Part shown: positions 8,811-45,986 of the stretch, one piece after another
Numbering within the stretch: the first letter of the stretch is position 1
How the letters are laid out: every line of letters begins with the position of its first letter
NCBI GenBank assembly: GCA_000996605.1
Contig: LCOP01000006.1
Span: forward strand, 1 to 49,143
DNA from: Parcubacteria group bacterium GW2011_GWA1_47_8
GTDB taxonomy: Bacteria; Patescibacteriota; Minisyncoccia; Phycocordibacterales; UBA1550
Length of the DNA stretch: 49,143 bases
Reading direction: 5' to 3'
Position numbers and translations under genes: made by a program
The notes under the pieces: generated by a model
Told to the model about the DNA's origin: nothing
The model's input: the letters and a program-made list of their open reading frames with translations, nothing else
The model's database searches: none

Positions 8811-10169
8811 TTAGAACATCGCCCTAATTTGATCAACCTCTTGAATTAATGATAAATCATTCTTCATGTCTGTTTTTATTTTATCACAAGAGTGCATGAC
8901 GGTGGTGTGGTCGCGCCCACCCAGCTTTTGTCCAATTGTTGGATAAGAAATATTGAAATCCTCCCGCAAAATAAACATTGCAACCTGCCGAGGCTTCAAC
9001 ACTTCCTTCCTCCTTGTTTTTTCATACACATAATCTTCTTGGATGTTGTAAAAATCACAAACAACCTTAACAATCTCTTTTACTGAAAGAAGTTTTTTAG
9101 GCTTCGCGGTGTTTTTAATGAACGGTTTTATTTCTGCCAAGGTTAAATGCTTATTTTTCAGCTGGGATTGGCAAATAATACCATTTAAAAGCCCCTCAAG
9201 CTCCCTAATATTACCTTGTACTGATGAAGCAAGATATTCAATAATCTCCACGGGTGGGCAAAAATCATTCACCTCCGCTTTTGCGCGCAAAATAGCGAGA
9301 CGAGACTCATATTCAGGCTCTTGGACATCAACAATCATCCCCGAGCTAAAGCGTGATTTTAGGCGGTTTTCAAGGGTTGGAATATAGTTTGGGTGTTGGT
9401 CGGAAGAGAAAACAATCTGCTTATTGTTGTTATAGAGCTCGTTAAAAATATGAAATAATTCCTCTTGGGTTTTTTCTTTATTGGAGAGGAATTGAATATC
9501 ATCCATAATAAAAAGATCATATTTGCGGTATTTTTCTTTAAAGACGCTCATCGCTTTTGAACCTTGAGATACTGAATTGACGTAATCAATAGTAAACTTT
9601 TCCGAGGTGATGTAAAATACTTTTTTCCCGGGGTGGTGTTTTTTGATTTGGTTACCAATTGCTTGGATGAGGTGGGTTTTCCCCAACCCCGTCTTTCCGT
9701 AAATAAAAAGAGGATTATATACATTTGTCCCCACTTTTTGCAGGATCGCTTGTGATGCCGCATAAGCAAGCTCATTAAAGGAGCCAATAATGAAATTATC
9801 AAACGTATAGCGCGGGTTCAGCCCATCTTCGCGATTTACATAAAGATCATTGAGGGGGAGCTCGGTTTGTTGGTTAAACACAACCTTTCCATCTTGTGGG
9901 CGAACTGTTTTTGAATCCTCGACCTTGTGAACCAAATATTCAACGCCACGGATATGCTCTGAAAGGTTGCGGAGCGACCTCAGTATTGTTTTGTGGAATT
10001 TGTTTTGGAGCCAATCTTTTACAAATTCATTTGGTACCCCCACAATAACCATCCCATCATCTTGCTTTATGATTATGGTGTTCTTGAACCATGTGCTGAA
10101 ATTCGCGCGCGAGAGCTCACCCTCAATACTACTCAATGTTTTTTCCCAAAGTTGTGTGTTGTCAGACAT
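8811..10169 (-). CDS. dnaA: Chromosomal replication initiator DnaA
   Basis: MSDNTQLWEKTL... N-terminus, Walker A GKTGLGKTHL, C-terminal DNA-binding helix (GGRDHTTVMHSC). The ORF-track start at 10229 is an upstream extension. Confidence 0.95.
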   Translation of the reverse strand: MSDNTQLWEKTLSSIEGELSRANFSTWFKNTIIIKQDDGMVIVGVPNEFVKDWLQNKFHKTILRSLRNLSEHIRGVEYLVHKVEDSKTVRPQDGKVVFNQQTELPLNDLYVNREDGLNPRYTFDNFIIGSFNELAYAASQAILQKVGTNVYNPLFIYGKTGLGKTHLIQAIGNQIKKHHPGKKVFYITSEKFTIDYVNSVSQGSKAMSVFKEKYRKYDLFIMDDIQFLSNKEKTQEELFHIFNELYNNNKQIVFSSDQHPNYIPTLENRLKSRFSSGMIVDVQEPEYESRLAILRAKAEVNDFCPPVEIIEYLASSVQGNIRELEGLLNGIICQSQLKNKHLTLAEIKPFIKNTAKPKKLLSVKEIVKVVCDFYNIQEDYVYEKTRRKEVLKPRQVAMFILREDFNISYPTIGQKLGGRDHTTVMHSCDKIKTDMKNDLSLIQEVDQIRAMF

Positions 10170-10262
10170 GGATATGAAGAATAGTTTAGATATTATTGTT
10201 TTATTATACTCACTGGCACCGCAATGCAAAACAACAAAGGGGGGATGAAACAGTTTTTAACC

Positions 10263-11904: not shown

Positions 11905-13227
11905 TTAGAAGATGCTTGGAATCGAGCCTTCGGATGATACGGGAGGAATACCGGTATCATCGGCGGCTTTTACGAGGTTGAATACCCAAGGAGTTGAGGA
12001 TTTTTTGTTTATAAATACGAGATAGGTGTCATCAGAAGAAAGGGCAAGATTCGTTATGTCCATTTCGTGACCATTGAATATCTTTGGCGTGAATACTTTT
12101 TCCACCACCCCTGTTTTTGTATCTATTTTCCAGACACTATCAGAGAAAGAGATAACCCCTTGGTACCACTGGTCTGGATAAAGGCCTTGGGGGATTTGTT
12201 CGGGAACCGCGCAGTATGCAATGGTTACCGTGATGTTGCCCCAGACGCATTTCTCGGGGAGCGTTTTAAGGGGAGTAGAGCGGAATTCTTTTTTTGTTGT
12301 GTCGTAGAGAGAGAGCACCGGTTCCTTTGTTGTTGTGTCGCTATAGAGGACCATGTTTCCGGTGTGGTTGGTCAAGGTGGTTAAGCCGTTGATGTTTCCG
12401 AGAATGCGCGAAAGAGTCTTTGTTTTTGGATCAAGAAAAAAGAAATATCCCGGGACGTCTCCTGAAGGTTTTGTGGTGAGGGTAATGAGTTTTTGGCTTG
12501 GGAATTGAGGAAGCCATTCAGTAAACACGGAGTTAAAGATGATACTCGTACCAAGCCCTTTCGTATTTGCGGTGGTGCCCCGTGCCGCGGAGGCGCTGTT
12601 TTCAAGATAGAAAAGTTTGTCGGCGCCGTCTTCGGCGATCGCCATATGGGGAATGTAATCGGGAAGATAGACTTCTTCGGTGGCAAGCGATGGTGAGCCC
12701 CCTGCGCTTTCGTCACTATTCGCAAAAGAAAGAATTGGTGCGTTCAAGTTTTGTACGCGTGTTTTGATTGCAGAACCATCTTTGTCGTCAAGGAAACGAA
12801 TTATCACACTATTTCCCTTGTTCCCAAAGAATGCCTCCGCTATTCCAGGATGTGTATTATTGGAAATACGGTTTTCCATGAAGGTTCCAAGATTTGTTTC
12901 AAAAATATGTCCCACACCGCGCTCAATATATCGAGCGAACATAGAGCGGTCGGATTTTGTTCCTATTTCTGCAAAGCCGACTCCTGCAACGGGTGTTTTG
13001 TGGAGTTCGTAGAGGCGGGGTAATTTCATCCCACTGCCGGGTGGGGAAGGTGGCTCCACATCCCCTCCTTCGCGGGGTGGCAATGGAGTACCTCCGTCAT
13101 TGGGGAAACCTGGGGTTTCCTCCGGCGCGACAGATGGCTTTTGGGAGAAATAAAAGTATGCGCCGACTCCCCCGAGGATGAGGATAAGGATTGCGATACT
13201 GACGATAATAAGTGTGCGTTTATTCAT
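11905..13227 (-). CDS. Membrane-anchored extracytoplasmic protein, unknown function (last gene of the T4SS-like operon)
   Basis: 440 aa with N-terminal TM helix LIIVSIAILILILGGVGAYFYF, a Pro-rich linker, then a large beta-rich-looking domain. 3-nt gap to the upstream gene. Confidence 0.6.
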   Translation of the reverse strand: MNKRTLIIVSIAILILILGGVGAYFYFSQKPSVAPEETPGFPNDGGTPLPPREGGDVEPPSPPGSGMKLPRLYELHKTPVAGVGFAEIGTKSDRSMFARYIERGVGHIFETNLGTFMENRISNNTHPGIAEAFFGNKGNSVIIRFLDDKDGSAIKTRVQNLNAPILSFANSDESAGGSPSLATEEVYLPDYIPHMAIAEDGADKLFYLENSASAARGTTANTKGLGTSIIFNSVFTEWLPQFPSQKLITLTTKPSGDVPGYFFFLDPKTKTLSRILGNINGLTTLTNHTGNMVLYSDTTTKEPVLSLYDTTKKEFRSTPLKTLPEKCVWGNITVTIAYCAVPEQIPQGLYPDQWYQGVISFSDSVWKIDTKTGVVEKVFTPKIFNGHEMDITNLALSSDDTYLVFINKKSSTPWVFNLVKAADDTGIPPVSSEGSIPSIF

Positions 13228-13230
13228 ACG

Positions 13231-14376
13231 TTAAAATTGTGGTGCGGATGCTTGGTTGGGGGTGAAGTTGATCACTGTGGACTGTTGAACGTTTTGGAAT
13301 GTGCGCCGGACACCCTTGGCGCTAAAAGTAACAGTTGACCTATTCGCCACCTCTTTTTCGTTGCGGAAAGTGATCGTACGACTCGGATTGTTAACCGACT
13401 TCCCATTAAGGAACCATTGATAAGAGTTAATCTGTTGACCAAGGGTTTCATTCGAGAAGAAATAAGGCTCCGCTTTAATAGAAACCTCTTTTGCGCTGAA
13501 GGCCGAGGTGGCGTCAACAGGACGGTTGTACAAAACACCAAGAAGAGGTTGGCTTTCGTAGAAGAGTATTATTGGTTGAGAGAGGGGTACGTTGATTGCA
13601 AAGTCTGATTTCGTAGCGTCGTTCAAGGAAGAAACTTTTACACGAACATTTGCTTCCCCGTATGGCTTGGGTCCTTCAAACAAGAAAGAGTTTTTATTGT
13701 ATCCTGAAGAGCTTTTGGTCGTGATTCCATCTTTTTCCCATTCAAACACAAGACCACCGCCATCCAGTGTATTTTTTGAGGTTGTGGTGTTGGGGACGGC
13801 AATTATACGCACGGTACTCTGTGTTGTCATAAGAGGCTTTCCTTTATAAAACGGCGGAGTGTATGTGTCAGCCTCCCAGAGAACCATAATGTCAACAGGT
13901 CTGAAGGTAAGTTCTTTGGTGATATTTTCTCCCGTATTAGTGGTGACGGAAATTACTAGCCTTGTTGTGGTGTTTGGAACACCGTTTTTGAAAGAAAAAG
14001 TGGTTTTTCCAATGCCGCTATCAACAACCTTACCATTGACCGACCATCTGATGGTTGCCTTGTTCATGTCAGACAAATAACTTTCGATACTCACATGTAT
14101 TGTTTCGTTGGGACCGGGATTTTGAGGGCTGGTTTTTATGTCCAGATAGTCAGTGATGGCTTTTGTACGAATTTTTTCCGTATCAATAAACTTTTTTTCT
14201 TGTTGTACCATCATGTCGGTTGTTACTTGCTTCATATTGGCGATGTAAGCATCTACGTCAAAAGTCGAGGTAGCAGCTGTTTGCGCAGAGGTCACGAATG
14301 GTACGACGAAAAGCGTACTAAGGAGTATTGAGTATGAAAGGAAACGCATACGTTGCATATATAATAGTATACTCAA
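13231..14376 (-). CDS. Secreted protein, unknown function
   Basis: 381 aa. Signal-peptide-like MRFLSYSILLSTLFVVPFVTSAQTA (alternative start at 14349). T/N/S-rich, beta-rich-looking sequence. Confidence 0.6.
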   Translation of the reverse strand: MSILLYMQRMRFLSYSILLSTLFVVPFVTSAQTAATSTFDVDAYIANMKQVTTDMMVQQEKKFIDTEKIRTKAITDYLDIKTSPQNPGPNETIHVSIESYLSDMNKATIRWSVNGKVVDSGIGKTTFSFKNGVPNTTTRLVISVTTNTGENITKELTFRPVDIMVLWEADTYTPPFYKGKPLMTTQSTVRIIAVPNTTTSKNTLDGGGLVFEWEKDGITTKSSSGYNKNSFLFEGPKPYGEANVRVKVSSLNDATKSDFAINVPLSQPIILFYESQPLLGVLYNRPVDATSAFSAKEVSIKAEPYFFSNETLGQQINSYQWFLNGKSVNNPSRTITFRNEKEVANRSTVTFSAKGVRRTFQNVQQSTVINFTPNQASAPQF

Positions 14377-14409
14377 GTAATTCGGAAAAGTAAAAGGATA
14401 TCCCCATCC

Positions 14410-16236
14410 CTACTTTCCTTGCACTTGGGCATCCGCAAATTCCTGCTTTGCCTTTTTGATGGCAAGAAGTTGCGAGGGGTCGGAGGTGATTATCTGGTCC
14501 TCGGTGTATGAGGCAATCGTTTTTATCGCCACGTGTTTCATGCCGGCAAAGAATATTCCCTCCCCGACGCCGGATTCGAGCAAAAGGTACTTTTCTTCAT
14601 CAGTCAGATTAAAGGCTTTTTGCACAGAATCAATCGATGTCGGGGATTGCTTGAGGAGTATCTGAATCGACGAGTTGGTCATAATGGGTAGTCCATATGG
14701 CGACTTCAAGAAGTCGTTGACGTCTTGAGTAATGGTGGCGATTCCGAGCCAGTATTTGCGGCCGCGTTTGGCGAGGGCGTAGAGGAACGATGCGGTGTCC
14801 TCGGATTTCATCATCCACCATGCCTCGTCGACGACCAAGAGGCGCTTGCGTAAGGTGCGGCGAATGGCGTTCCAAATAAAGTGCGTCACTATGTACATGG
14901 CGACGGGTTTTAGGTCGTCTTCCATGTCGCGTACCGAAAAGACGATGAATTTGCGATTAATGTCGACATTGGATGGCTGATTCAAGAATCCCGACCATGA
15001 CCCGCGGGTATATTTGGAGAGTTTTTGAACGATGCTTTCCGATCCGCTCATGCCCGCAAGCACCATTTCAAAGTCCGAGAGGAGCGGCGGCTCTGCGGTG
15101 GAAAAATCAGACTCGGGAGTGATATCCTTGAGCGCGTATGTTTCCGCAATAGCGCGGTCGACAATAGCGTCCTCTTCGGGGGTAAGCCCGCCCAACATCA
15201 AGCGGAAGAGACCCACAAGCGAAATGATATTGGAGCGCAAGACATCCGCGGGAGATTCGCCCTCTCTCGGTATCGGGAGGTCAAAGGGGTTAATATGGTG
15301 GTCGGAACTCAAAGAAATATTGAAATACCGCCCCCCTACTGCTTCTGCCATGGATTCGTATTCTCGCTCGGGGTCGATGACAATGACATCGACATCAAAC
15401 ATGAGGCTTCGCAGGATTTCGAGTTTAGTAGCGTAGGATTTTCCGGATCCTGATTTTGCAAACGTGATGGAGTTGTAGTTTTCAAGCGAAAAACGGTCAA
15501 AGAGCACAAGGGATGAATTGTGACGGTTGATGCCGTAGAGGATTCCATGGTCCGATGTAAGGTCGAATGATACGAAGGGGAAGAAGCTGGAGAGTGGTTC
15601 GGAATTAATCTTTCTTGTGACAGCTATTTTGTCGTCATTGACGGGAAGTACGCTTTTGAACGCGTCTTCTTGTTGGAAGAGCGCGGGGCGTAGGTAAATG
15701 AGGCGTGATTCGAGCATAGATTTGACTTCGGCTTCGGCGTGGAGGAGGTCTTCTTCGGTGTCGGCGTAAAGCGATACATAGAGCCCTACATCGAACATTT
15801 TTTCCTGTGCTTGTTGGAGGCGGTCACGCAATGTCTCAAGGTCTTGATAGGCCGTCTCGAGCATCGGGTCGCGCACGTATCCTTTTTGTTCGCGTACGGA
15901 AATCTGGCTCTGCACCTCGGCGACTTTCCGCTCAAATTTTTTCATAATCCCCGCCGTGTCGACCGGATGGATATAGATGGAAATGTCAAAAACGCGGTCA
16001 AGGTTGATGAGCGGAGAAAGCCAGTTGTCGTTCACGGCGTTTGGATAGGAGGTTACAAAAAAGGTACGCACAATCTTTTCCCCCAAGTTAATATCCTTGG
16101 GATTGATCTTGATTGCCGAAGGCGCGATGATGTCCCCTAGGTCAAGTCCCGTATCACTATAGAGTTCCTGCGGAAGCACCGGAATCGAATTCTTGTCTTG
16201 GGGGGACGCTTCTTTTTTTGTGAAAAAATCAAACAT
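14410..16236 (-). CDS. VirB4/TraC/TrbE-family type IV secretion ATPase (core plus ATPase domain)
   Basis: Walker A FAKSGSGKSYATK, Walker B RLLVVDEAWWMM, DPEREY motif. 608 aa. Confidence 0.85.
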   Translation of the reverse strand: MFDFFTKKEASPQDKNSIPVLPQELYSDTGLDLGDIIAPSAIKINPKDINLGEKIVRTFFVTSYPNAVNDNWLSPLINLDRVFDISIYIHPVDTAGIMKKFERKVAEVQSQISVREQKGYVRDPMLETAYQDLETLRDRLQQAQEKMFDVGLYVSLYADTEEDLLHAEAEVKSMLESRLIYLRPALFQQEDAFKSVLPVNDDKIAVTRKINSEPLSSFFPFVSFDLTSDHGILYGINRHNSSLVLFDRFSLENYNSITFAKSGSGKSYATKLEILRSLMFDVDVIVIDPEREYESMAEAVGGRYFNISLSSDHHINPFDLPIPREGESPADVLRSNIISLVGLFRLMLGGLTPEEDAIVDRAIAETYALKDITPESDFSTAEPPLLSDFEMVLAGMSGSESIVQKLSKYTRGSWSGFLNQPSNVDINRKFIVFSVRDMEDDLKPVAMYIVTHFIWNAIRRTLRKRLLVVDEAWWMMKSEDTASFLYALAKRGRKYWLGIATITQDVNDFLKSPYGLPIMTNSSIQILLKQSPTSIDSVQKAFNLTDEEKYLLLESGVGEGIFFAGMKHVAIKTIASYTEDQIITSDPSQLLAIKKAKQEFADAQVQGK

Positions 16237-16254
16237 GATAATTTAAAAATTATG

Positions 16255-16920
16255 TCACTTCCCTACATTTACCGATTGCTTCTCGACCTCGCCGGGGTTG
16301 AATAATCGGTAGTAGAGCTCGGTAAGCTCCTCGGTCCCCAGCGGCACGATGCGAACACCCGTGCGTGCCAAACCCTGCGTGATGACTCCCGCGCGCTGTT
16401 CAAGCTGTGAGCGCGCTTCTTCAAATGCTTCGGTGGCGCTCTTGGAAAGCTCGGGTTTTGCGCCACTAGTGTCTTTTTTTGCAAAAAGGCCGCCCATCCC
16501 CCCTTTTTTTGTTGATGCGGTCACCGAGGATGGCGGAGAATACGGCACCACGATGAGGAAGAGCTTGCTCATGATATTGGTCGAGTGCGTGACCGTTCCC
16601 ACAAAGTTTATGTATTCTTTGATTTGAATTTTTAAAAGTTCGTTGGTTTCTAAGCGCAGGCGTTCTTCGAGAAGGAGAAGGTAGGGGCGGATGTCGAGAC
16701 GGCGGGATTGAATAAAGATTTGTGTTGAAAATTCGAGAGAGTTCAAGAAGCTTTGAAATTGCATGAGGACGGACGCTTGTTCATCCGCGGATTTGAGCGC
16801 AAAGTTAATCGATGATGCCATGAGGAGCCGGCGCAAAGTGCCGTCTTTCATGATGACCACGCCATCACGGATTTCCTTGATGGGGATAAATTCTTGCGCT
16901 GCTTTTGATTTTACTGTCAT
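16255..16920 (-). CDS. Separate protein resembling the N-terminal domain of Gram-positive-type VirB4 (PrgJ / Tn916 Orf16 family)
   Basis: EFIPIKEIRDGVVIMKDGTLRRLLMASSINFALKSADEQASVLMQFQSFLNSLEF matches the ...INFxL...E...fLN pattern of that domain. It is separated from the ATPase ORF by 18 nt that carry an additional in-frame TAA. Confidence 0.55.
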   Translation of the reverse strand: MTVKSKAAQEFIPIKEIRDGVVIMKDGTLRRLLMASSINFALKSADEQASVLMQFQSFLNSLEFSTQIFIQSRRLDIRPYLLLLEERLRLETNELLKIQIKEYINFVGTVTHSTNIMSKLFLIVVPYSPPSSVTASTKKGGMGGLFAKKDTSGAKPELSKSATEAFEEARSQLEQRAGVITQGLARTGVRIVPLGTEELTELYYRLFNPGEVEKQSVNVGK

Positions 16921-16924
16921 ACGG

Positions 16925-17362
16925 TTATTTTTTTTCAGATGAATTTTCTATCGCGTTTTGTTTTCGCACCTCAAGGTTGAATGACACGGAGGCGAGTTTG
17001 CCACCGGAAAGTGAGGGTACGCTCGGTGCTTGTGCCCCAATAAATTCTTCTTCCGCGCCAAGCGCTGCATCTTTTTTTGTTTTTTTCCATGTATAGAGCT
17101 TGGTGCCAAAGGCGTATCCGAATCCGGCTTCTAGGATTTCAATAAAAGGCTTGCCGAGCTTTTCTTTCGGATAAAATGCGAGTGCCCACGCGAGAACAGC
17201 CCATGCGAGGATAAGTGGTGCGGCGATAAAAAGAATCGGAATGACTTTGTATATGAGAAACGCACCGCCTGCTCCCCCTACCACATACAGTGCTTGTTTG
17301 AATGTAAGCGGCCCAAAAAGTTTGTCCTCAATATCGATGTACTGGGGGATGTGGAATTGCAT
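16925..17362 (-). CDS. PrgI-family / VirB3-like small membrane protein
   Basis: MQFHIPQYIDIEDKLFGPLTFKQALYVVGG followed by two TM helices. 145 aa, directly upstream of the VirB4 genes. Confidence 0.65.
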   Translation of the reverse strand: MQFHIPQYIDIEDKLFGPLTFKQALYVVGGAGGAFLIYKVIPILFIAAPLILAWAVLAWALAFYPKEKLGKPFIEILEAGFGYAFGTKLYTWKKTKKDAALGAEEEFIGAQAPSVPSLSGGKLASVSFNLEVRKQNAIENSSEKK

Positions 17363-17368
17363 ATAGTA

Positions 17369-17403
17369 AGTCTAAAAGTTAAAAGTCTCAAAGTCAAAAG
17401 TCA
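17369..17403 (-). repeat. GACTTT-repeat leader motif ending 6 nt upstream of the prgI-like ATG
   Basis: The minus strand reads TGACTTTTGACTTTGAGACTTTTAACTTTTAGACT-TACTAT-ATG. A near-identical motif with the same 6-nt spacing lies at 45832-45863. Confidence 0.55.
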
Positions 17404-17745
17404 CAAGACTTTCATGAACCCCGCAATCATTTTTGATGTTTCTATCGTCAGTGTGTAAAGTTCTTCGAACTCTTGCTTCGTGATGTACTTTAATTCACAC
17501 CCCAAGTATAGCATCGACCGCACTTCTCCGCACGAACCTTTTGCGATGGAAAGAAAATGTTTGAATTCTTTATCGCCCCTCCTTTCAAAACCCTCGGCGA
17601 TGTTGTTCATTACTGAGACCGATGCTCGTTGTATTTGGTCTTTGAAACCATAGTCCTTGTTGCTGCCCAATATCTTATAAATAGAAAAGGTTAAGGTCCT
17701 GGCTCTTTGCCAAGCGTTGATATCCTCAAATTTTTCTATTCTCAT
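17401..17745 (-). CDS. Four-helix-bundle protein of the 23S rRNA-intervening-sequence / Avd family
   Basis: 114 aa. Motifs INAWQRARTLTFSIY, QIQRASVSVMNNIAEGFERRGDKEFKHFLSIAKGSCGEVRSMLYL are typical of this family. Confidence 0.85.
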   Translation of the reverse strand: MRIEKFEDINAWQRARTLTFSIYKILGSNKDYGFKDQIQRASVSVMNNIAEGFERRGDKEFKHFLSIAKGSCGEVRSMLYLGCELKYITKQEFEELYTLTIETSKMIAGFMKVL

Positions 17746-17818
17746 ATCTTCTTAAGAACCCATCCACTATCTTCCCCCTTCCCTGAAACCCTTATTTCTG
17801 GCTATAAAACTTCGTCTC

Positions 17819-17848
17819 GTACGAACCATAATTCAATATGGTTCGTAC
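17819..17848 (-). terminator. 12-bp perfect-stem hairpin between the Pro-rich gene and the four-helix-bundle gene
   Basis: gtacgaaccata-attcaa-tatggttcgtac, 15 nt downstream of the stop at 17863. Confidence 0.45.
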
Positions 17849-17862
17849 TCCGAGACTAAGTA

Positions 17863-18687
17863 TCATTCCACCGCTTCGCGGTAGGGGTCGTGGCCTGGAG
17901 GGGTGGGGGCTGTCGGAGCGGGAGCAGGGCTTGGAACTGGGGGCGCTACGGGTGTTTCCGGAACTCCGTAGCGCGGGGTGGTGGGGATTTCTTGGGGTGC
18001 GGGAGTGGGGGTGCTCGTTAAAACCTTTTTCATTTGTTGTTCAAAGGGGTGAAGCTCTGCGGGGGCAGGAGGTACTACGGGGGTTTGCGGTGTCGTGGTT
18101 TGGGGCGGTGGCGAGGGCGGCAAAGGAACCGCTATTTGGGGAGTTTCGATAGGGCGTATTACGGGCGGGCGGGGCGGTATCGGCACCGAAGGAATTTTCA
18201 TCCCAAATGGCGGCAGGCCTTCCTCTGCCGACGGCACGGCAGGTAAACCTTCTTCGGGGGATGGTTTAGGTTTAGGGGTTTCGCTTGGGGGAGCGGTTGG
18301 TGGAGTAGCGTTCTCTGTGGCAGACGGAGAAGGTTTCTCCCCATCGTTTTCCTCAAGACTTGACTCTAAAGATTCCGCCTCTCTTTTTTCTTCCATACGG
18401 GTAGGAGTAATGATTTCTGAGAATACTGCAGATGTTATTTTTTTTGCGGTAGCGTCGTCAATTTTCATTTGATCCATTAGTTTTTTTGAAAATTCTTCCT
18501 CGTCAGCTATTTTCAAGAGAGCCATGTTCGTGAGGGCGTTAAGAAATTCTTTTCCCTCGGGAGGTAGTTGTTGCGAGGCAAGAACAGATTGAACAGCTTG
18601 TTCAATTTCAGGAGTAAAAAGGATATCCTGGGTGCTTCGAGGAAGTTTATCAAACGCGAGCGATATTTGTTCTTCGGTGTAGTCCAT
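17863..18687 (-). CDS. Protein with helical N-terminal domain and long Pro-rich C-terminal tail, unknown function
   Basis: 274-aa ORF in operon context (3-nt gap to the upstream gene). The tail is PxP-rich (PVVPPAPAEL..., PVAPPVPSPAPAPTAPTPP). Confidence 0.6.
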   Translation of the reverse strand: MDYTEEQISLAFDKLPRSTQDILFTPEIEQAVQSVLASQQLPPEGKEFLNALTNMALLKIADEEEFSKKLMDQMKIDDATAKKITSAVFSEIITPTRMEEKREAESLESSLEENDGEKPSPSATENATPPTAPPSETPKPKPSPEEGLPAVPSAEEGLPPFGMKIPSVPIPPRPPVIRPIETPQIAVPLPPSPPPQTTTPQTPVVPPAPAELHPFEQQMKKVLTSTPTPAPQEIPTTPRYGVPETPVAPPVPSPAPAPTAPTPPGHDPYREAVE

Positions 18688-18690
18688 AAA

Positions 18691-20547
18691 TTAAGCGGTA
18701 GCTTCTTTAAGATCCTTATTTATTTGCTTTACCTTTGATCGTGCCTCCGTAAATTCATTAAGGTTTCGTGTTGCCCTCTTCTTTGCGACAATGGCCGCTT
18801 TATGAGCTGGGGTTCCTGCTGTTGCTGCTGCCATATTGGACTCCGCATCTGCCTCTAATGTCTCAAGGGTATCTCTCCTTGTTTCTGCCAGTGCGGTTAT
18901 TGTAGGGTCATCAATATCCCTGGTATCCCCAGGGATTCCGAGGTCTACCCTAAATTTAGCAATAATTGCCTTCTTTTCTGCGTCAAGTTTTTCGCGATTT
19001 TTTTCTCCTTTGCCCACTACCTTTGCTGCTTCTTTTGCTCCAACATTACCACCGGTTCCCGTACGGGATAGATAACCTTTTTCGAGCTGCGTTTGGTATG
19101 CTTGTGCCGCAGTAATATCATTTCCACTCGCATCTTTTACGATAAGAGGCTTCCCGTTTTCGTCAACCGTAACCTTTTTCCCAAATGCTATGTCTTTTGC
19201 TTTGGCATCAGAAACAGTTTTTGCATAATTACTTTCTGTTCCTTTCCCTAAACCAAGATTCCCTCCGGCGCGAGTGTTGCGAATGTCCCAATTCCCCCCC
19301 GCAACTTTTTCATTGAGATTATAAGCTACCCTCCCGATACTATTTGACGACGCCATTCTTTTGAATGTCTCAGATTGCGATGCCTTATAAGCTAGTCCCC
19401 CTACAGTTTTTTGTGCAAGCTTAGCTCCCGTAAGCGCCGTAAACCCGCCAACCGCACCGACAATTTTTTCACCCAGCTCACCAAAAGACCCCGACATGCT
19501 TTTCGCGAGACCAATCGCCTTATTCAATGCTAGATATACGAAAATGACGGTAATCGTGGGAATAAAGATTGTGTCAAAGGTGAAGGTGCCGACGGTTGCA
19601 GTATTCGGCCTCAAGAAAGAATTTAAAAGTCCTCCTTCCCCCAGAATCTTTATGATGATATATAGAAAGAAAAGGAAGACTGGTGCTACAAAGGAAAGAC
19701 CAAGGAGGTTCTTGAGCCATTTTTGGAACTGGTTCCCTTGGGGGAACGTTATCGAGATAAAGGCAAACGGGGAAATGATCATAAGAAACCAAAACCCAAT
19801 AATACGTCCAATGAAAACAACCGCAACCTGGAAAAATGCCAATGCCGCAAAGATGTTGACTAGGGTTCCTATAACAAACAGAACGGTTATTTCCATTGCG
19901 GATAATTTTGTATCCGCGGTTATTTTCATAAATGTTTGCGGTTGGAAATATGTTGCAATGGAGTAAGAGAGATTGCGTTCCGGTATGCCGCCTTTCGTAT
20001 GCGGAGTTGTGGACGGGCTTCCCATTGCACTGTACATTCCCACCGCGAGAACATTCCCCGCGTCGATGACGACTTTGGTGAAAAAGAGACTGAAGTTTAT
20101 GAGGAGCGCGATAATGACGACTTTAATTACGGTTTTTTGCCAATTCCCAAGACCAAGGATCGTCTGTATCCCTGTGTAGAGGAGAATGAAGATAAAGACC
20201 ATATTGGTGAAGCTAAGTATGATCCCCCATATTGTGGTGATAAACTTTTGGTTAAGAAAAACTTTGTCGATGCTTAAGGCAAGCACTGCGTCAAAGATAT
20301 ACGCCGCTCCGGTAAGAAGCATGGATGCAACCGAAAAAACAGCATAAGCGAGATACATCGGAATAAGCATGGGAACATTCGCCAGACAGGTAACCCAATC
20401 CTCCTTACAAGAAAGCTGGGCAATGAGAGAACTTGCGGTAGTGGCATCTGTTGTGGCATCCGCTGACGCCGTCATCGTCATACCAAAGAAAAGTATGGTT
20501 CCGGCGAGGATTGCTATTAGGGTACTTTTTTTAAGATTGATTTTCAT
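18691..20547 (-). CDS. Polytopic membrane protein, putative VirB6/TrbL-like channel component with a hydrophilic C-terminal extension
   Basis: 618 aa with a signal/TM N-terminus and at least 6 hydrophobic helices over residues 50-350, then a Lys/Ala-rich soluble tail. Its position in the VirB3/VirB4 operon supports the call, which is inferred, not motif-proven. Confidence 0.5.
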   Translation of the reverse strand: MKINLKKSTLIAILAGTILFFGMTMTASADATTDATTASSLIAQLSCKEDWVTCLANVPMLIPMYLAYAVFSVASMLLTGAAYIFDAVLALSIDKVFLNQKFITTIWGIILSFTNMVFIFILLYTGIQTILGLGNWQKTVIKVVIIALLINFSLFFTKVVIDAGNVLAVGMYSAMGSPSTTPHTKGGIPERNLSYSIATYFQPQTFMKITADTKLSAMEITVLFVIGTLVNIFAALAFFQVAVVFIGRIIGFWFLMIISPFAFISITFPQGNQFQKWLKNLLGLSFVAPVFLFFLYIIIKILGEGGLLNSFLRPNTATVGTFTFDTIFIPTITVIFVYLALNKAIGLAKSMSGSFGELGEKIVGAVGGFTALTGAKLAQKTVGGLAYKASQSETFKRMASSNSIGRVAYNLNEKVAGGNWDIRNTRAGGNLGLGKGTESNYAKTVSDAKAKDIAFGKKVTVDENGKPLIVKDASGNDITAAQAYQTQLEKGYLSRTGTGGNVGAKEAAKVVGKGEKNREKLDAEKKAIIAKFRVDLGIPGDTRDIDDPTITALAETRRDTLETLEADAESNMAAATAGTPAHKAAIVAKKRATRNLNEFTEARSKVKQINKDLKEATA

Positions 20548-20559
20548 AAAAATAAGATA

Positions 20560-22614
20560 CTAATCATAGACCCCTTTTACTGCGTCTTGCACGAGTGTGG
20601 TGATGAGTGTTTGGATGATTTTATCTAAGCTGTCGGCAAGTCCTATTCGATTCATATCGGTACCAAGGGTTTGCGTCAGTTGCTCCTGCACGATCTTTCC
20701 GGGGGTGGTTACCGGACAGTATGTTTTTTGGTAGAAGATAACATTTTCGGCACCAAGGTAGTTTGGATTATTAGGGTCGGTGATGATCGTCGGGGTGTTT
20801 GCCGTCATAATAAGACGAAGATCTGCCGGATAGGCGCATAGCGCCGGATTATCTGTTTTGTGCAGATCTGCGAAGCCACCCGACCAGCTTAGCTGTTGTT
20901 TTTTTGTATCTGCCGCTTTTTGTTGGCGGCTGTTCAATTCCCTGCTTGCCGTAATCGTGACCCCAAAAGGATTTCCGGCATCATCCATCGCTGTTTCAAA
21001 TGCACGCCAACCTCCGTAACTAAAATCTTCATAGAAGCTACTTGCCGGGTACGAGAAAAGCGGGTCGTCCCCAAAAGGACACTTGACTTTATCTTTGAAC
21101 ATATTGCGGGTGCTCTTTGCGGAAAGTTCGAGATCGTTGGTGAGATCCATTTTGAAAGAAGGGGTGAAGTCGCAAACAGCAACTCCGCGTAACTGCCGTA
21201 CAAAATCACCTCCTACGATATCATTGGAACCATCAAGGAGAACGTTTATGTTTGTGGCGAACGATGGGCTCCCGTTAAATCCTCCCTTGATCCAATTGAC
21301 GGTACTTTCGGTCAGGTTGTTTAACATGAGTTGCCCCATGGTATAAATAAGACAATCTCCGAAATCTTTGAATTGTTGTGTAGCCCCGGATATTCCTGTA
21401 GGAAGTGCCTCTACTGGATTTGTCGTGGGTACGGTAAATACTGCACTCGCTGTTGCAAGGGTTGTAGTGAGTGCCCCTACCGCCCAAGGACCAACTACTG
21501 AAGCAACTGCAACTGCCGCGCAAGGAGTTATGGCGCCGGCAATAAATTTACCCGCCCCCCCGCTTCCCCCGAGTGCCGATCCGGGTCCCGCTCCAGCCCC
21601 TGACGTAGCCGCCCCTGACGTAGCCCCCGCTTTTGCCGCAGAAGCGGAAGCCGAAGCCGACTCCGCCTGCAGTTGGTCATTTGCCGCTTTTATCACCAAT
21701 GCTGTTGCGGCTATTTGAGAATCTGCGATAGTAAAAATTGTTCCCGTATCCGTTTTTAATATTCCTGCGCGCGTTTGTGCGGCTAGAGCTCTTTGAAGGG
21801 TGGCGTCTGCTACATCCCTTGCGTTTTCTGCTTGTCCCCATGCAAAAATGTTAGACGAATTTGTTGCAAGCAATGTTGCTTTTGCCATATTGAATGCATC
21901 TTGAGCTTGCAACACCCATGTGTCGGCTTCTGTGGCGGCTCTTTCTGCTGACACGCGAGCTACTTCTGCCGCCGTTTTTACTTCGCTTGCCGCCGATTGT
22001 GCAAGTGATGTAGCGAGCGATACGGCACCTTGTGCGGAGAGCACTGCTATATTTGCCGCATCTATTGTTGCAACGTTGCTGTTTGCTACCGCTATCGCTC
22101 GCCCCAGTTGTGCGAGGGTTAATTTTGCTTGAGCTATCGTAATGAGTGTTGTTTGTACTTGCGCTACGGTTAATTGCAATTGAGCGATTTGTAACTGTGT
22201 TGCTGCAATATCAAGGTACACGGTTACCTTTTTTTCTTGCGTGTCTGTTGGGCGTTGTTGTATCAGAGCCAATTGAGCTTTTGCCGCATTGACCGGATCT
22301 TGTGCATTTTTTAGCTCTACTTGTGCAGTAAGGTTCGCCGCATCGTATTTTGCCGCAAGGGTTGTTTGCGTGGCTGATGCCGCCGACACGTCAAATCCTT
22401 CTCCGCTTGGACTTTTTAATATTAACTCTGCTGTTGTCACTGCCACGGACAGTTCCGCCATTGCGGCGCTAAGGGAGGCTGCTTGCACTGGGTTTAAAAG
22501 AGAAGATCCCACGGTAGCGATGGTAGCAAGGGAAAGGAAAAATTTTTTGAATAGAAAGATTCCTTTTTTATGTTCAGTTGAGCGAGGTAGATTTTTGAGA
22601 AGTTTCGTAGGCAT
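20560..22614 (-). CDS. Large secreted/anchored protein: Ala-rich coiled-coil-like N-terminal half, Gly/Ala/Ser low-complexity linker, Cys-containing globular C-terminal domain; unknown function
   Basis: 684-aa ORF with signal-like FFLSLATIATVGSSLLNPVQA, a long A/Q/T/L-rich region, the stretch SASASAAKAGATSGAATSGAGAGPG, and a hydrophobic segment before the C-terminal domain. Confidence 0.6.
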   Translation of the reverse strand: MPTKLLKNLPRSTEHKKGIFLFKKFFLSLATIATVGSSLLNPVQAASLSAAMAELSVAVTTAELILKSPSGEGFDVSAASATQTTLAAKYDAANLTAQVELKNAQDPVNAAKAQLALIQQRPTDTQEKKVTVYLDIAATQLQIAQLQLTVAQVQTTLITIAQAKLTLAQLGRAIAVANSNVATIDAANIAVLSAQGAVSLATSLAQSAASEVKTAAEVARVSAERAATEADTWVLQAQDAFNMAKATLLATNSSNIFAWGQAENARDVADATLQRALAAQTRAGILKTDTGTIFTIADSQIAATALVIKAANDQLQAESASASASAAKAGATSGAATSGAGAGPGSALGGSGGAGKFIAGAITPCAAVAVASVVGPWAVGALTTTLATASAVFTVPTTNPVEALPTGISGATQQFKDFGDCLIYTMGQLMLNNLTESTVNWIKGGFNGSPSFATNINVLLDGSNDIVGGDFVRQLRGVAVCDFTPSFKMDLTNDLELSAKSTRNMFKDKVKCPFGDDPLFSYPASSFYEDFSYGGWRAFETAMDDAGNPFGVTITASRELNSRQQKAADTKKQQLSWSGGFADLHKTDNPALCAYPADLRLIMTANTPTIITDPNNPNYLGAENVIFYQKTYCPVTTPGKIVQEQLTQTLGTDMNRIGLADSLDKIIQTLITTLVQDAVKGVYD

Positions 22615-22623
22615 AAAAAGGCG

Positions 22624-23220
22624 TTACATTTTTGAGAAAATCGTGTTGACTTGAATAAGGACATTTGCCCCTGCTTGGTATTTGGTAATCCCGGCAATTC
22701 CTCTCGCCGGGTCTACAAATGCTTGTTGCATGTCTTCGACACCGGAAATGACCATTGCATACCCTGTGATCATGAGAAGATGGACATCCGCCATTATTTC
22801 AGGGGTTTTAATGTGAAGGAGACCGTCAATAAGTTTTTTGTAACTTTCAATCATAGGACCGAGGGGGATAAGTTTTTGCGAATCCTTTGCATCGAGGGCT
22901 TGAGTCACAATAAGAAGTTCGTTCCCTGTGTTTTTTTGAGCAAAGGTGTTGAGTGTCGTACTTAGTTCCTTTTGGTACGCGGCAAATGATTCTGTTGTCG
23001 TTGGAACGATCACGATATCCTCCCGCGTGTAATGCTTTACTGGATTTTGGTCAGGGGTACTTTTTGAAATACTTTGTGCGATTGCTTGCGCATCTGCGTC
23101 ACTAAAAAACCGGCTATTGCTCATAGCGAAAAGAACAATTCCTGCGCCTGCAAGTGTTGCAAGAGCAATGGAGATAATTTTTTTAGAAGGCCGGAGCATG
23201 TGACGATTACTTGAAAGCAA
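22624..23220 (-). CDS. N-terminally anchored small protein, unknown function (first gene of the T4SS-like operon)
   Basis: 198-aa ORF. The likely ATG is at 23199 (MLRPSKKIISIALATLAGAGIVLFAM). TGGTATAAT lies on the minus strand at 23250-23258. Confidence 0.55.
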   Translation of the reverse strand: MLSSNRHMLRPSKKIISIALATLAGAGIVLFAMSNSRFFSDADAQAIAQSISKSTPDQNPVKHYTREDIVIVPTTTESFAAYQKELSTTLNTFAQKNTGNELLIVTQALDAKDSQKLIPLGPMIESYKKLIDGLLHIKTPEIMADVHLLMITGYAMVISGVEDMQQAFVDPARGIAGITKYQAGANVLIQVNTIFSKM

Positions 23221-23298
23221 TGGGTGTTGCCACCTATCCTTACCTATTTAATTATACCAGATACAAAGGAGAATGATACAAGGGGATAAGGAAAATTC

Positions 23299-23307
23299 TG
23301 TGGATAA
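23299..23307. promoter_or_regulatory. Perfect DnaA box TGTGGATAA, 19 nt upstream of a -10 element
   Basis: Exact 9-mer read in sequence. Confidence 0.45.
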
Positions 23308-23317
23308 CAAACATGTT

Positions 23318-23331
23318 TTTTGTGCTATACT
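23318..23331 (+). promoter_or_regulatory. Extended -10 promoter TTTTGTGCTATACT (identical 14-mer at 30376-30389)
   Basis: TGC-TATACT lies 8 nt upstream of the ATG at 23340. Confidence 0.5.
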
Positions 23332-23339
23332 TTTTTTAT

Positions 23340-24602
23340 ATGAAATTTCGCATCGCACTCCTGCTTTTTGCGATAATACCAATACAACTTTTTGGTGCAA
23401 CGACAGGGTTCCCGCGGGATCTTTCGATAGGAATGTCAGGAGAGGATGTGCGGTCATTGCAGGTTGTGCTCAATACAGATCCGGAAACACTGGTTGCGAA
23501 GTCGGGTTTTGGGTCACCGGGGAACGAAACTGCCTATTTTGGTCTTGCCACAAAGCGCGCCCTTACAAAATTTCAGGAGAAATATCGGGAGGATGTGCTT
23601 ATTCCGGTCGGACTTCATGCCGGGACAGGATTTTTTGGAAAAAGAACCCAAGCGAAAGTCTCGGCGTTGTTTCAAAAGCTCGGCGAACCCACTGCTCTCC
23701 AAGAAGTAGTTTCCATGGGAGCACAAAGGGCAACCACAAGTCTTTTTGTTGATTTTAATAGTGTTAAAAAACCCGATACTTTCTCGCGCATAGAAAAAAA
23801 ATATTTTAATATAACACCAAGTGGTCTTGCGACTCTTGGAGAATACTATCGTACCTATGCCCAGATTACATCTGAAGTCACGTTTTCCCAAGAAGACCTC
23901 GGCATGATGAAGAAAAAAATTGAAGTTGCGAACGAAAATGGAGAGAAAAAGGAGAGGGTATTACTGCTCGAAGAGCTGATAGATGAGGCAAAGAGAGGAG
24001 ATACTTCCAAAGAACTGAAAGCATCGTTTATGGCGTGGGCGAATCTAGATAAAAGAATGGTTGCTGAGTTAAAAAAAGTACCTACCACCTTCTCGGCGTT
24101 TGATGCAAACCAAGAAATAGCGAGCTGGTTTCAATATCACGGACTCATTGCAGAACGTTTCGGAAGCGCAACCCTAAGTTCTTTGGAAATGGACGATCTG
24201 CTGAAAGAATTTAAAGCATATGCAGCAACACACGTTGGGTTATATGGGAAGAGTATTGCGAAAGCGCAAGAAAAAGAACCCGCGTTCTTCTCGGTCATCA
24301 ATAAAGCAGAAGCGTCCGGTTGCGGCCTGACTCATTTTGGTGGCAGGGTTGCGTTCTATGTGACCTGCAACTTGGGTACCGTTCACACTATTGCCGGGAC
24401 ATGTGGAGGGCAAGTTTTGTTCAACTGGGCGGTGCAGGCCGCAAATCCTTATCTTTCGCATAATATCTATACCCCCGGCGTTGCCGTGCTTGGAAAATCG
24501 GTTGCTGACCCTATCCTCTTTTGCCCTCTCGGCTTCCCCCCATTCATGGTGCCTATTCCTACCACAGATATCGCTATTTACTATGGGACGGCCGTAATGT
24601 AG
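23340..24602 (+). CDS. Secreted protein with N-terminal peptidoglycan-binding (PG_binding_1-like) domain and Cys-rich C-terminal domain of unknown function
   Basis: Signal peptide MKFRIALLLFAIIPIQLFG. SGEDVRSLQVVLN...FGLATKRALTKFQEKY matches the PG-binding repeat. Transcribed divergently from the T4SS-like operon. Confidence 0.65.
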   Translation: MKFRIALLLFAIIPIQLFGATTGFPRDLSIGMSGEDVRSLQVVLNTDPETLVAKSGFGSPGNETAYFGLATKRALTKFQEKYREDVLIPVGLHAGTGFFGKRTQAKVSALFQKLGEPTALQEVVSMGAQRATTSLFVDFNSVKKPDTFSRIEKKYFNITPSGLATLGEYYRTYAQITSEVTFSQEDLGMMKKKIEVANENGEKKERVLLLEELIDEAKRGDTSKELKASFMAWANLDKRMVAELKKVPTTFSAFDANQEIASWFQYHGLIAERFGSATLSSLEMDDLLKEFKAYAATHVGLYGKSIAKAQEKEPAFFSVINKAEASGCGLTHFGGRVAFYVTCNLGTVHTIAGTCGGQVLFNWAVQAANPYLSHNIYTPGVAVLGKSVADPILFCPLGFPPFMVPIPTTDIAIYYGTAVM

Positions 24603-24614
24603 CAAGGAAAGACA

Positions 24615-25415
24615 TTAGTCACCAATAAGACGCATTGCTTTGGACAAGAGGAACCATTTATCAAAAGGCACGTCTTCGGCGCGGGCGTCGGGGGAAATGT
24701 TTGTAGCGTGAAGGATATTTAGCACTTCTTTTCCGAGCAATTCTTTTAGGTTTCCGGAAAGTTTCTTGCGTTTATGGGCAAAGCCCGCTTTGATGAGGCT
24801 GAAAAATTTTTGCTCGGTTTTTTTGTCTTCAAAATTTCTGCCGGAAATTTCTTTGATGGCGAGAACCGCCGAATCTACTTTTGGTTTCGGAGTGAAGTAG
24901 CGCGCGGGGACTTTTTTTATGAGATGAGGCGTTCCGTACGCTTTTACCGAGAGGGACAGGATGCTTTCTTTGTGGTCACGTGCAATGATGCGATCGGCGA
25001 TTTCTTTTTGCACCATGAGAATGATGCGCTCGGGGCGATGTTTCGCTTCGAGAAATGTCCTTAAGATTTGTCCGGTGATGTAGTAGGGAATGTTCGCAAT
25101 GAGTTTGTATGAAGGCGGTAAAGGAAGGTCAAGCGTTTCAAATATCTCCAAAATATCGCCTTCGATAAGCGTGAAACACCCCGCGCGTATCTCGGCGGCA
25201 AATTTTTCTGCAAGGAATGGAATGAGTCGCATGTCCTTTTCAACCGCAATGACGTGTGCTCCTGAGGCGAGAAGCTCTGCGGTGAGGAACCCCTTCCCCG
25301 GCCCGATCTCGAGCACGGTGTCCTTGACGGCAAGCTCCCCCGCGCGGACGATGTCGCGCGCTATTGATTTTGAATTTAGAAAATTTTGTCCGAGAGTTTT
25401 TTTCGCGCGGAGCAT
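24615..25415 (-). CDS. rsmA: 16S rRNA (adenine1518/1519-N6)-dimethyltransferase RsmA/KsgA
   Basis: KKTLGQNFL, EIGPGKGFLT, NIPYYIT motifs. 266 aa. Confidence 0.9.
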   Translation of the reverse strand: MLRAKKTLGQNFLNSKSIARDIVRAGELAVKDTVLEIGPGKGFLTAELLASGAHVIAVEKDMRLIPFLAEKFAAEIRAGCFTLIEGDILEIFETLDLPLPPSYKLIANIPYYITGQILRTFLEAKHRPERIILMVQKEIADRIIARDHKESILSLSVKAYGTPHLIKKVPARYFTPKPKVDSAVLAIKEISGRNFEDKKTEQKFFSLIKAGFAHKRKKLSGNLKELLGKEVLNILHATNISPDARAEDVPFDKWFLLSKAMRLIGD

Positions 25416-27422: not shown

Positions 27423-27455
27423 GGGGACACTGTAGCACAAAACAAGCTCACCGCT

Positions 27456-43594: not shown

Positions 43595-43613
43595 AAATAA
43601 TCCCAAGATAAAT

Positions 43614-45825: not shown

Positions 45826-45831
45826 AAAGGT

Positions 45832-45863
45832 AGTCGAAAGTAAAAAGTCGGAAAGTCGAAAGC
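45832..45863 (-). repeat. GACTTT-repeat leader motif ending 6 nt upstream of the cca ATG
   Basis: The minus strand reads GCTTTCGACTTTCCGACTTTTTACTTTCGACT-ACCTTT-ATG. Compare 17369-17403. Confidence 0.55.
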
Positions 45864-45986
45864 AGATTTGTGTACCGCTGGCTTTATAGATTTTTGACAT
45901 TAAGACCTTCTGACTTGTTTAGTCTAGTTTATTTTTGGCTTTTTTACCAATGTGCGCTATGCTTTCGATAGTTTCATGAGAAATAT

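Follow-up and report, generated by a model that had tools for sequence, protein, structure and literature searches.

A putative replication-origin-proximal type IV secretion system in a Paceibacteria genome, with five accessory protein families and no pilin gene in the cluster

The type IV secretion systems (T4SSs) of Patescibacteria were recently surveyed in 3,035 genomes (Quiñonero-Coronel et al. 2025, PMC12102498), and the 2,425 VirB4 proteins recovered form one clade nested in MPF-FATA. In that survey the commonest companion of VirB4 is TrsD, followed by VirB3/PrgI and a divergent VirB6. Relaxases were found in only 103 of the 3,035 genomes (109 homologues, only 15 of them near virB4), homologues of the type IV coupling protein (T4CP) lie mostly far from virB4, and the Paceibacteria locus adjoins dnaA, dnaN, rnpA, ksgA and rpmH. 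For one genome, Table S3 of the survey assigns 531 to VirB6, 533 to VirB3, 534 to TrsD, 535 to VirB4 and 537 to VirB2 (PF18895). Here, a T4SS gene cluster is described from contig LCOP01000006.1 of Parcubacteria group bacterium GW2011_GWA1_47_8, a member of the Paceibacteria lineage (Yonathbacteria/Nomurabacteria-like); the whole stretch of DNA that was analysed, 49,143 nt in length, is referred to as the window.

A homologous system is that of Southlakia epibionticum ML1 (Wang et al. 2023, PMC10633639), in which the T4SS (SEML1_0006-0019) is essential for epibiotic growth and the cluster lacks both relaxase and T4CP (PMC10633639, PMC12857230); a comEC mutant of the same organism is viable while the T4SS is essential (PMC12857230). 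A 2024 perspective described the role of the Patescibacteria T4SS, its substrate and mechanism included, as 'completely unknown' and suggested that nucleotides might be acquired through it (PMC11665869).

The region analysed here is very probably a vertically inherited, replication-origin-proximal T4SS of the type typical of Patescibacteria, in this case in a Paceibacteria genome. An earlier note on this DNA, made from the sequence alone, had recognised a T4SS-derived apparatus with a VirB3/VirB4(/VirB6-like) core, which is borne out by the profile matches given below, and had implied that the apparatus is novel, which does not hold: the system, its missing relaxase and its position at dnaA/rnpA/ksgA are already published (PMC12102498, PMC10633639, PMC12857230). 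The system is thus a known one, and what is new here is the delineation of five accessory families, the domain swapping in one of them (the 684-amino acid (aa) family) and a variant of the locus without a pilin gene.

An open reading frame (ORF) scan of the window showed ten co-directional minus-strand ORFs running from 23220 down to 11905, separated by gaps of 3-117 nt and placed at exactly the coordinates given in the earlier note. A divergent gene encoding a 429-aa protein precedes them (earlier placed at 23340-24602). From high to low coordinates, the divergent gene and the ORFs of the cluster are:

23313-24602, plus strand, 429-aa secreted protein, divergent from the cluster
22624-23220, minus strand, 198-aa protein, accessory family
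20560-22614, minus strand, 684-aa protein, accessory family
18691-20547, minus strand, 618-aa protein, candidate VirB6/TrbL-like
17863-18687, minus strand, 274-aa protein, accessory family
17401-17745, minus strand, 114-aa protein, 23S_rRNA_IVP
16925-17362, minus strand, 145-aa protein, PrgI/VirB3-like
16255-16920, minus strand, 221-aa protein, predicted TrsD-like
14410-16236, minus strand, 608-aa protein, predicted VirB4 ATPase
13231-14376, minus strand, 381-aa protein, accessory family
11905-13227, minus strand, 440-aa protein, accessory family

In order to determine how the locus is distributed, an alignment of two VirB4 sequences was used as query against one-genome-per-species contigs. 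This returned 490 relatives, and the best 80 of these, which are titled Candidatus Yonathbacteria, Nomurabacteria or Paceibacterota, were used; the titles of many relatives are generic or probably mislabelled (Patescibacteria group, Minisyncoccia, uncultured Candidatus Saccharibacteria). Four further loci were found via the 684-aa protein, and all ORFs of 84 loci, 80 of which are species representatives, were compared by iterative hidden Markov model (HMM) searches. The shared order is ksgA / 198-684-VirB6-like-274-PrgI-TrsD-VirB4-381-440 / yidC-yidD-rnpA-dnaA-dnaN, and is seen in most loci that are long enough (exceptions include L006, L019 and L052), as well as in the four loci found through the 684-aa protein. 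A Pfam scan of the window ORFs placed the same housekeeping genes on both sides of the cluster, together with more distant genes that are referred to below:

7479-8579, dnaN
8811-10229, dnaA
10342-11864, rnpA, yidD and yidC
24615-25415, ksgA
25443-27440, uvrD
30406-31590, LysM-M23 peptidase
37161-38093, tyrosine recombinase

The stretch that separates dnaN from dnaA contains perfect DnaA boxes and is where the GC skew changes direction, indicating that the cluster lies beside the replication origin. Since the gene order recurs between housekeeping genes, the locus is vertically inherited and not mobile. The earlier note had named a patchy, mobile-element-like distribution as an argument against a novel apparatus; the opposite was found, the cluster being syntenic and origin-proximal in ~80 species. 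The window shows no step in base composition, and a PHROGs search of the cluster proteins gave no phage relation. Pfam scans of the plausible large ORFs in the 49 kb detected no relaxase, T4CP, VirB11 or VirB8-10, in agreement with what had been read from the sequence earlier. As T4CP homologues in Patescibacteria usually lie far from virB4, the absence of a T4CP from 49 kb says little about the genome. Of the features of conjugative T4SSs, a relaxase and a T4CP are absent from the 49 kb, and a variable location is not seen either, the flanks being the same in most of the ~80 species. The earlier views that the window holds no DNA-processing genes and that this is not an ordinary conjugation module are supported.

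Profile searches with the core proteins confirmed the VirB3/VirB4 part of the apparatus. The 608-aa protein matched NCBIfam conju_CD1110 VirB4 at 8.7e-114 (381 bits; cutoff 325) and Pfam P-loop_TraG at 1.4e-25, bears the Walker A motif GSGKS and the Walker B motif VVDEAW, and is on these matches a VirB4 ATPase of the MPF-FATA / CD1110 type. It is 72-90% identical to the VirB4 of 80 Paceibacteria species and no more than 37% identical to that of any PLSDB plasmid (3,440 PLSDB matches), and by identity, as opposed to by a tree, it groups with Patescibacteria VirB4s and not with those of plasmids or integrative and conjugative elements (ICEs). The 145-aa protein passes the Pfam PrgI gathering score (4.7e-8, 33.9 bits; cutoff 27) and has one strong hydrophobic segment (residues 40-58), and its PrgI/VirB3-like family was found in 76 loci. 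The 221-aa protein has NCBIfam matches to TrsD/TraD (1.2e-6) and to the N-terminal ~100 residues of VirB4 models (1.5e-5), in both cases below the curated cutoffs, and its orthologues carry a precomputed Pfam TraC-like match; judged by these similarities, it is a TrsD-like protein equivalent to the VirB4 N-terminal domain. The TrsD-like gene is an ORF separate from VirB4 in 81 of the 84 loci, so the split is ancestral, and a frameshifted VirB4 as the origin of the gene pair was ruled out by the same conservation. What had been described as a two-gene VirB4 is accordingly right as to the two genes and the VirB4 motifs, but is in fact a conserved TrsD and VirB4 pair.

The median identity of the window proteins to their orthologues was then compared between near and far sets of loci:

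VirB4, near 85%, far 75%
DnaA, near 81%, far 62%
TrsD, near 76%, far 54%
PrgI, near 63%, far 44%
440-aa protein, near 53%, far 39%
381-aa protein, near 47%, far 32%
618-aa protein, near 40%, far 34%
684-aa protein, near 44%, far 29%
198-aa protein, near 34%, far 24%
274-aa protein, near 32%, far 25%

The motor protein VirB4 is more constrained than the replication initiator DnaA, whereas the 198-, 684-, 381- and 440-aa proteins evolve much faster. Such fast evolution of the envelope proteins would fit parts that face the cell wall or the host surface.

One gene of most related loci is missing from the window. A VirB2-like pilin-hydrolase gene is present in 73 of the 84 loci and lies exactly between the 381 and 440 genes in 64 of them. 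Its product contains the Pfam T4SS_pilin hairpin (family consensus 3e-9; TrbC 8e-5) fused to a variable peptidoglycan hydrolase, which is of the M23, VanY or NlpC/P60 type, or SLT (L092), and to judge from these domains the protein is in effect a VirB2/VirB1 fusion. This fusion is the 'VirB2' (PF18895) that was counted in the published survey (PMC12102498); a gene of this kind near virB4 is common in the Patescibacteria clade, though not universal. Examples of the fusion genes are:

Locus L001, 17599-18486, pilin-hydrolase fusion
Locus L019, 12915-14036, pilin-hydrolase fusion
Locus L031, 12900-14033, pilin-hydrolase fusion
Locus L026, 12853-14601, pilin-hydrolase fusion
Locus L092, 21293-22474, pilin-hydrolase fusion

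A scan of all six frames of the window with the VirB2-like pilin HMM gave no match (best E 0.16), in keeping with the earlier statement that a VirB2 pilin is missing from the 49 kb, and the 381 and 440 genes are cleanly separated by just 3 nt. The same junction without a pilin gene occurs in L089 and L090, which are independent assemblies of close relatives with 440-aa proteins 99% and 83% identical to that of the window, indicating that the absence of the gene is real for a small clade. The gene could be located elsewhere in the genome. The earlier description of the apparatus as minimal therefore holds in that no pilin gene is present here, but the minimal state is partly lineage-specific, as most relatives encode the pilin-hydrolase.

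The 618-aa protein has ~8 hydrophobic segments within residues 9-347, followed by a Lys/Ala-rich hydrophilic tail, and its family, present in 65 loci, usually sits between the 684 and 274 genes. It is polytopic and encoded with VirB3/VirB4 at a conserved operon position, as would be expected of a VirB6/TrbL protein (at least five transmembrane segments). The window protein has no significant match in Pfam, NCBIfam or PHROGs and the family consensus none in Pfam; TrbL was matched by one of 21 relatives (Pfam, 5.9e-5), and the L001 orthologue has a weak precomputed TrbL match. When 321 ORFs were searched with the family HMM, the TraL of pSK41-type plasmids was matched at E 6e-5 over two segments that are collinear, and this TraL is itself a clear member of Pfam TrbL_4 (5e-20); alignment of the 618 family with TraL by hhalign gave a probability of 70%. 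PrgH of pCF10 was also tried as a VirB6 reference and showed no similarity to the family, and a search of PDB sequences with the family profile gave nothing below E 0.02. The 618-aa protein is thus a candidate VirB6/TrbL-like channel subunit. The VirB6/TrbL call of the earlier note agrees with its polytopic nature and fixed place in the operon, but finds no profile match for the window protein itself. The TraL similarity and the separate TrsD, which among the reference systems is restricted to the pGO1/pSK41 subclass, point to that subclass as the closest plasmid relative.

The remaining five families are the accessory proteins. The window members of 198, 684, 274, 381 and 440 aa have no significant match in Pfam, NCBIfam or PHROGs. 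They had been listed earlier as five unknown proteins of the cluster, and they proved to be conserved members of it, forming syntenic families across the related loci.

The 198-aa protein has a single hydrophobic segment (residues 15-33) that forms an N-terminal membrane anchor, and an apparently helical C-terminal domain, as predicted from its sequence. Its family was found in 47 loci, always directly after ksgA or the peptidoglycan-binding gene, and in its relatives the linker is longer and contains DxDxDG / TSP3-like repeats, which the window protein has lost. A PDB profile search gave nothing below E 0.02. A VirB8-like fold was considered but seems unlikely, as the domain looks helical from its sequence and alignment and does not resemble the mixed alpha/beta NTF2-like fold of VirB8. 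The 274-aa protein has a conserved N-domain of ~100 aa and, at its C-terminus, a short motif that is also conserved, with a Pro-rich middle separating the two. As it lacks any hydrophobic segment, it is probably cytoplasmic. In 73 loci the family lies between the VirB6-like gene and PrgI, and tandem pairs are frequent; its consensus has no match in Pfam.

The 684-aa protein begins with a signal-peptide-like N-terminus, followed by an Ala-rich helical region (~47-340), a Gly/Ala hydrophobic stretch (357-395) and a Cys-containing domain of ~265-290 aa (residues ~395-684, nt 20560-21430). Only this C-terminal domain is conserved (52 loci). The rest of the protein is exchanged between lineages: the extension is N-terminal and Ala-rich in this clade, absent in forms of 288-372 aa, and C-terminal elsewhere (to 1340 aa), and some relatives bear Bact_surface_Ig-like or F5/8 type C (discoidin) modules. 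Within the conserved domain, Cys residues 481, 512, 593 and 633 are near-invariant, and the motifs include TVNWIKGGFNGSPSF, CDF, CPF, GGW.AFE, GNPFG and YC.TTTPGK. A profile search of 1.84 billion representatives with the domain recovered 4,652 clusters at E<=1e-3 and 3,675 at E<=1e-10, of which all named members are 'hypothetical protein' of Patescibacteria, Wolfebacteria among them. The Ig-like and discoidin modules, the signal peptide and the four conserved Cys residues argue that the family is surface-exposed. No match to the protein or to its family consensus was found in Pfam, and the domain profile matched nothing in PDB below E 0.02. The hydrophobic stretch was also considered as a VirB2-like pilin, and the pilin HMM does not match it. 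In L091 (Candidatus Wolfebacteria, NVTD01000002.1), which represents a more distant lineage, 198-, 684- (discoidin), VirB6- and 274-like genes stand together after a uvrD gene that contains an intein, with no VirB4 within the following 10 kb, indicating that the operon can split into two halves.

The 381-aa protein has a signal-like N-terminus and three repeats of ~105 aa, each with a W-x-x-(N/D)-G motif; W111, W213 and W321 are invariant in the family. The family consensus gave sub-threshold Pfam matches to Ig_3 (3.2e-5) and PKD_3 (9e-5), and the protein is a predicted secreted protein with three Ig-like repeats. It was found in 79 loci, directly after VirB4, and the family profile matched nothing in PDB sequences below E 0.02. 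The 440-aa protein, present in 69 loci as the last gene before yidC, was modelled by AlphaFold2 (AF2) from a 47-sequence alignment with a predicted local distance difference test (pLDDT) score of 84.4 and a predicted template modelling (pTM) score of 0.77. In the predicted model an N-terminal transmembrane helix is joined by a disordered Pro-rich linker (31-59) to an extracytoplasmic beta-propeller, and the family has an invariant Cys pair (C327 and C339). A Foldseek search of PDB with the model returned generic propellers only (3pe7, DCAF1 WD40 and TolB; oligogalacturonate lyase among the matches), at E ~1e-10, TM 0.4-0.5 and ~10% identity. The family consensus has no Pfam match, and the PDB sequence profile search gave nothing below E 0.02.

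Two further genes are associated with the cluster. The 114-aa protein, which the earlier note had left unnamed, is a 23S_rRNA_IVP four-helix-bundle protein (Pfam 1.1e-35; TIGR02436 3e-33). Only 12 of the 84 loci have its gene. It occupies three different intergenic sites, in each case on the strand of the operon, which marks it as a sporadic insert that does not belong to the machine. A perfect 12-bp hairpin (GTACGAACCATA-N6-TATGGTTCGTAC) lies at ~17819-17848, between the stop codon of the 274-aa gene and the IVP gene. The divergent 429-aa protein is secreted, with a PG_binding_1-like N-domain and a Cys-rich C-domain. It scores 21 bits against PG_binding_1 (cutoff 23) and its family consensus passes at 30.5 bits; the peptidoglycan-binding assignment made earlier is matched by the family consensus, with the window protein just below threshold. 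The gene is present only in the 12 nearest of the 84 loci, and is by this distribution a clade-specific neighbour of the cluster.

A perfect DnaA box (TTATCCACA) is located at 23299-23307 on the minus strand, 79 nt upstream of the first start codon of the operon. Boxes in the same orientation (<=1 mismatch) occur at -59 to -79 in L002, L007, L010 and L011, and a box is present in 8 of 14 near-clade loci, where 0.15 per 310 nt would be expected; the far clade is mostly without such a box (3 of 28 loci, near chance, at other positions or in another orientation). The upstream box may couple expression of the operon to DnaA. Predicted promoters and terminators were as numerous in the window as in shuffled sequence, and no operon boundaries could be drawn from them; Rfam returned only four tRNAs, every one outside the cluster. 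Transcription of the operon runs towards the presumed origin and thus meets the fork leaving oriC head-on, and almost all related loci are alike in this (L006 and L033 are rearranged exceptions). For an operon that is highly conserved and probably essential, such an orientation is unusual, and it is relevant to the gene-dosage idea in the literature.

We infer that the function of the system is that of a host-interface translocation machine. A VirB4 hexamer would dock via TrsD and PrgI onto the VirB6-like channel and power translocation across the single membrane, while the 198-, 684-, 381- and 440-aa proteins would form the wall-spanning and host-contact part, to which the 684-aa protein would contribute its conserved Cys domain together with a stalk or adhesin module that varies. 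The machine would serve the host-dependent lifestyle and not conjugation, most likely as a route by which proteins or other macromolecules pass between the small cell and the host. Opening of the cell wall would here need another enzyme, and the LysM-M23 peptidase at 30406-31590 can be named only speculatively. A more detailed proposal is doubtful at present: the 198-, 381- and 440-aa proteins and the 684 domain might form a Paceibacteria-specific outer module that replaces the VirB8, VirB1 and adhesin parts, the 684 domain being the host-recognition element whose exchangeable module (a coiled-coil stalk here, Ig-like or discoidin elsewhere) sets the host range, in a machine that works without any VirB2-like pilin.

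Several points weigh against reading the locus as a working host-interface T4SS. The sequence evidence for the VirB6 assignment of the 618-aa protein is weak, and the accessory proteins are placed in the system by synteny. An AF2 model of the 684 conserved domain (18 sequences) was unusable, with a pLDDT of 48, and the topology of this protein is ambiguous, as the stretch between stalk and domain could be a membrane segment. Without the pilin-hydrolase of its relatives, the machine may be partly disabled or may operate in another way. A T4CP or relaxase may be encoded elsewhere in the genome, of which only 49 kb are visible.

The alternative that survives best, though unlikely, is a DNA-uptake machine comparable to ComB of Helicobacter or Ced of Sulfolobales, which would import host or environmental DNA for nucleotides or genes, perhaps with the type IV pilin and ComM. 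The comM and type IV pilin genes reported earlier were confirmed by Pfam 8-10 kb from the cluster, but they are not syntenic with it in related loci (0 and 1 loci, respectively). The lack of a relaxase or T4CP in the window would suit such a machine, as would the published suggestion of nucleotide acquisition (PMC11665869), whereas the operon has no DNA-binding or ComEC-like component, and the viability of the S. epibionticum comEC mutant shows that there the essential T4SS and ComEC are uncoupled (PMC12857230). VirB4 does have a partial match to CedB (2.2e-9), but it is weak, at 36.5 bits against a cutoff of 700, and is confined to the P-loop; CedD scored 14 bits. It is very improbable that the locus is a decaying remnant, no longer functional, of a lineage that lost the pilin-hydrolase and a recognisable VirB6: the pilin-hydrolase gene of 73 of the 84 related loci is indeed absent from the window and from the assemblies of two close relatives, but all ten ORFs are intact and tightly spaced, the 381/440 junction is clean, VirB4 is 85-90% identical to that of the nearest relatives, and every other family keeps its conserved motifs. 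Least probable of all is a mating-pair-formation module of an ICE or plasmid with relaxase, coupling protein and oriT outside the window, since, although the core is homologous to Gram-positive conjugation genes (TrsD, VirB4, PrgI and TraL), a tyrosine recombinase is encoded at 37161-38093 and T4CP homologues exist elsewhere in Patescibacteria genomes, the recombinase is 14 kb off and beyond housekeeping genes, the position between ksgA and yidC-rnpA-dnaA is the same in most of the ~80 species, conservation is higher for VirB4 than for DnaA, no step in base composition is seen, and the survey found relaxases in few genomes and 15 homologues near virB4 (PMC12102498).

Other features of the window lie outside the cluster. 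A CCA-adding/poly(A) polymerase-type enzyme is seemingly split into two minus-strand ORFs with a 4-nt overlap (44486-45373 and 45370-45900), comprising a PolyA_pol head domain (176 aa) and an RNA-binding and HD part (295 aa). An MmeI-like type IIL restriction-modification enzyme is encoded at 47-1573 on the minus strand; the ORF ends inside the methyltransferase domain (profile positions 3-159 of 259), and its C-terminus may be truncated. An adjacent pair of PRiA4_ORF3 (7e-59) and DUF6930 (1e-13) genes is located at 42965-44045 on the plus strand.

Few machines are known to be essential to ultra-small bacteria for their epibiotic lifestyle, and the Patescibacteria T4SS is one of them. The window provides a clean Paceibacteria example, in which a gradient of conservation separates the motor from the surface parts, and the five families, the gradient and the pilin-less variant are useful, if incremental, starting points for structural and genetic work.

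Among known systems, the Ced and ComB DNA importers are not matched by the window locus, the CedB score being far below cutoff, CedD scoring 14 bits and no VirB7-10 homologues being found by Pfam or NCBIfam. Actinobacteria are known hosts of Saccharibacteria, and the closest VirB4 in PLSDB outside Patescibacteria comes from an actinobacterium, Streptomyces sp. BHT-5-2 (L086, NZ_CP081497.1 2172432-2202141; 36.8% identity, E 1e-102). Encoded with it are a PF18895 pilin (8e-20) and a PrgI protein (1e-17) to which a TrsD-like region is fused in the same ORF. The locus lies in an unannotated region of 69% GC. The Prg/Pcf system of Enterococcus pCF10 likewise has PrgI next to a CD1110-type VirB4 (PrgJ), with ~28% identity between the VirB4 proteins; it differs in having VirB4 as a single polypeptide, LPXTG adhesins, the PrgK hydrolase, a T4CP and a relaxase, and a PrgH unlike the 618-aa protein. 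Of the MPF-FATA subclasses, only the Trs/Tra systems of pGO1, pSK41 and pIP501 have TrsD as a gene of its own in front of VirB4, and the pSK41-type TraL (TrbL_4) is the only reference protein detectably similar to the 618-aa family. These plasmid systems, by contrast, have a relaxase, T4CP, CHAP hydrolase, topoisomerase and single-stranded DNA-binding protein, and their VirB4 is only ~24% identical. None of the 198, 684, 274, 381 and 440 families was detected in the reference pCF10-type, pSK41-type (pGO1/pSK41/pIP501) or Streptomyces loci.

The T4SS of S. epibionticum shares with the window locus its origin-proximal position, Gram-positive-like composition, lack of relaxase and T4CP in the cluster, and proposed host-interface role. 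It belongs to a different class, Saccharimonadia, and has an essential array of six VirB2-like pilins, with peptidase and lysozyme genes after virB4; the essentiality result is one for S. epibionticum. The closest match is the Patescibacteria-clade T4SS of the published survey (PMC12102498), which has the same MPF-FATA VirB4, separate TrsD, PrgI/VirB3 and VirB6-like protein, the same lack of a relaxase and the same position near dnaA/rnpA/ksgA, and from which the window lineage differs in being without the PF18895 'VirB2' after VirB4. The gene order in Table S3 matches that of the window locus; 532 and 536 are unassigned there, 532 being at the position of the 274-aa protein, and the five accessory families delineated here correspond to the unassigned positions of that survey.

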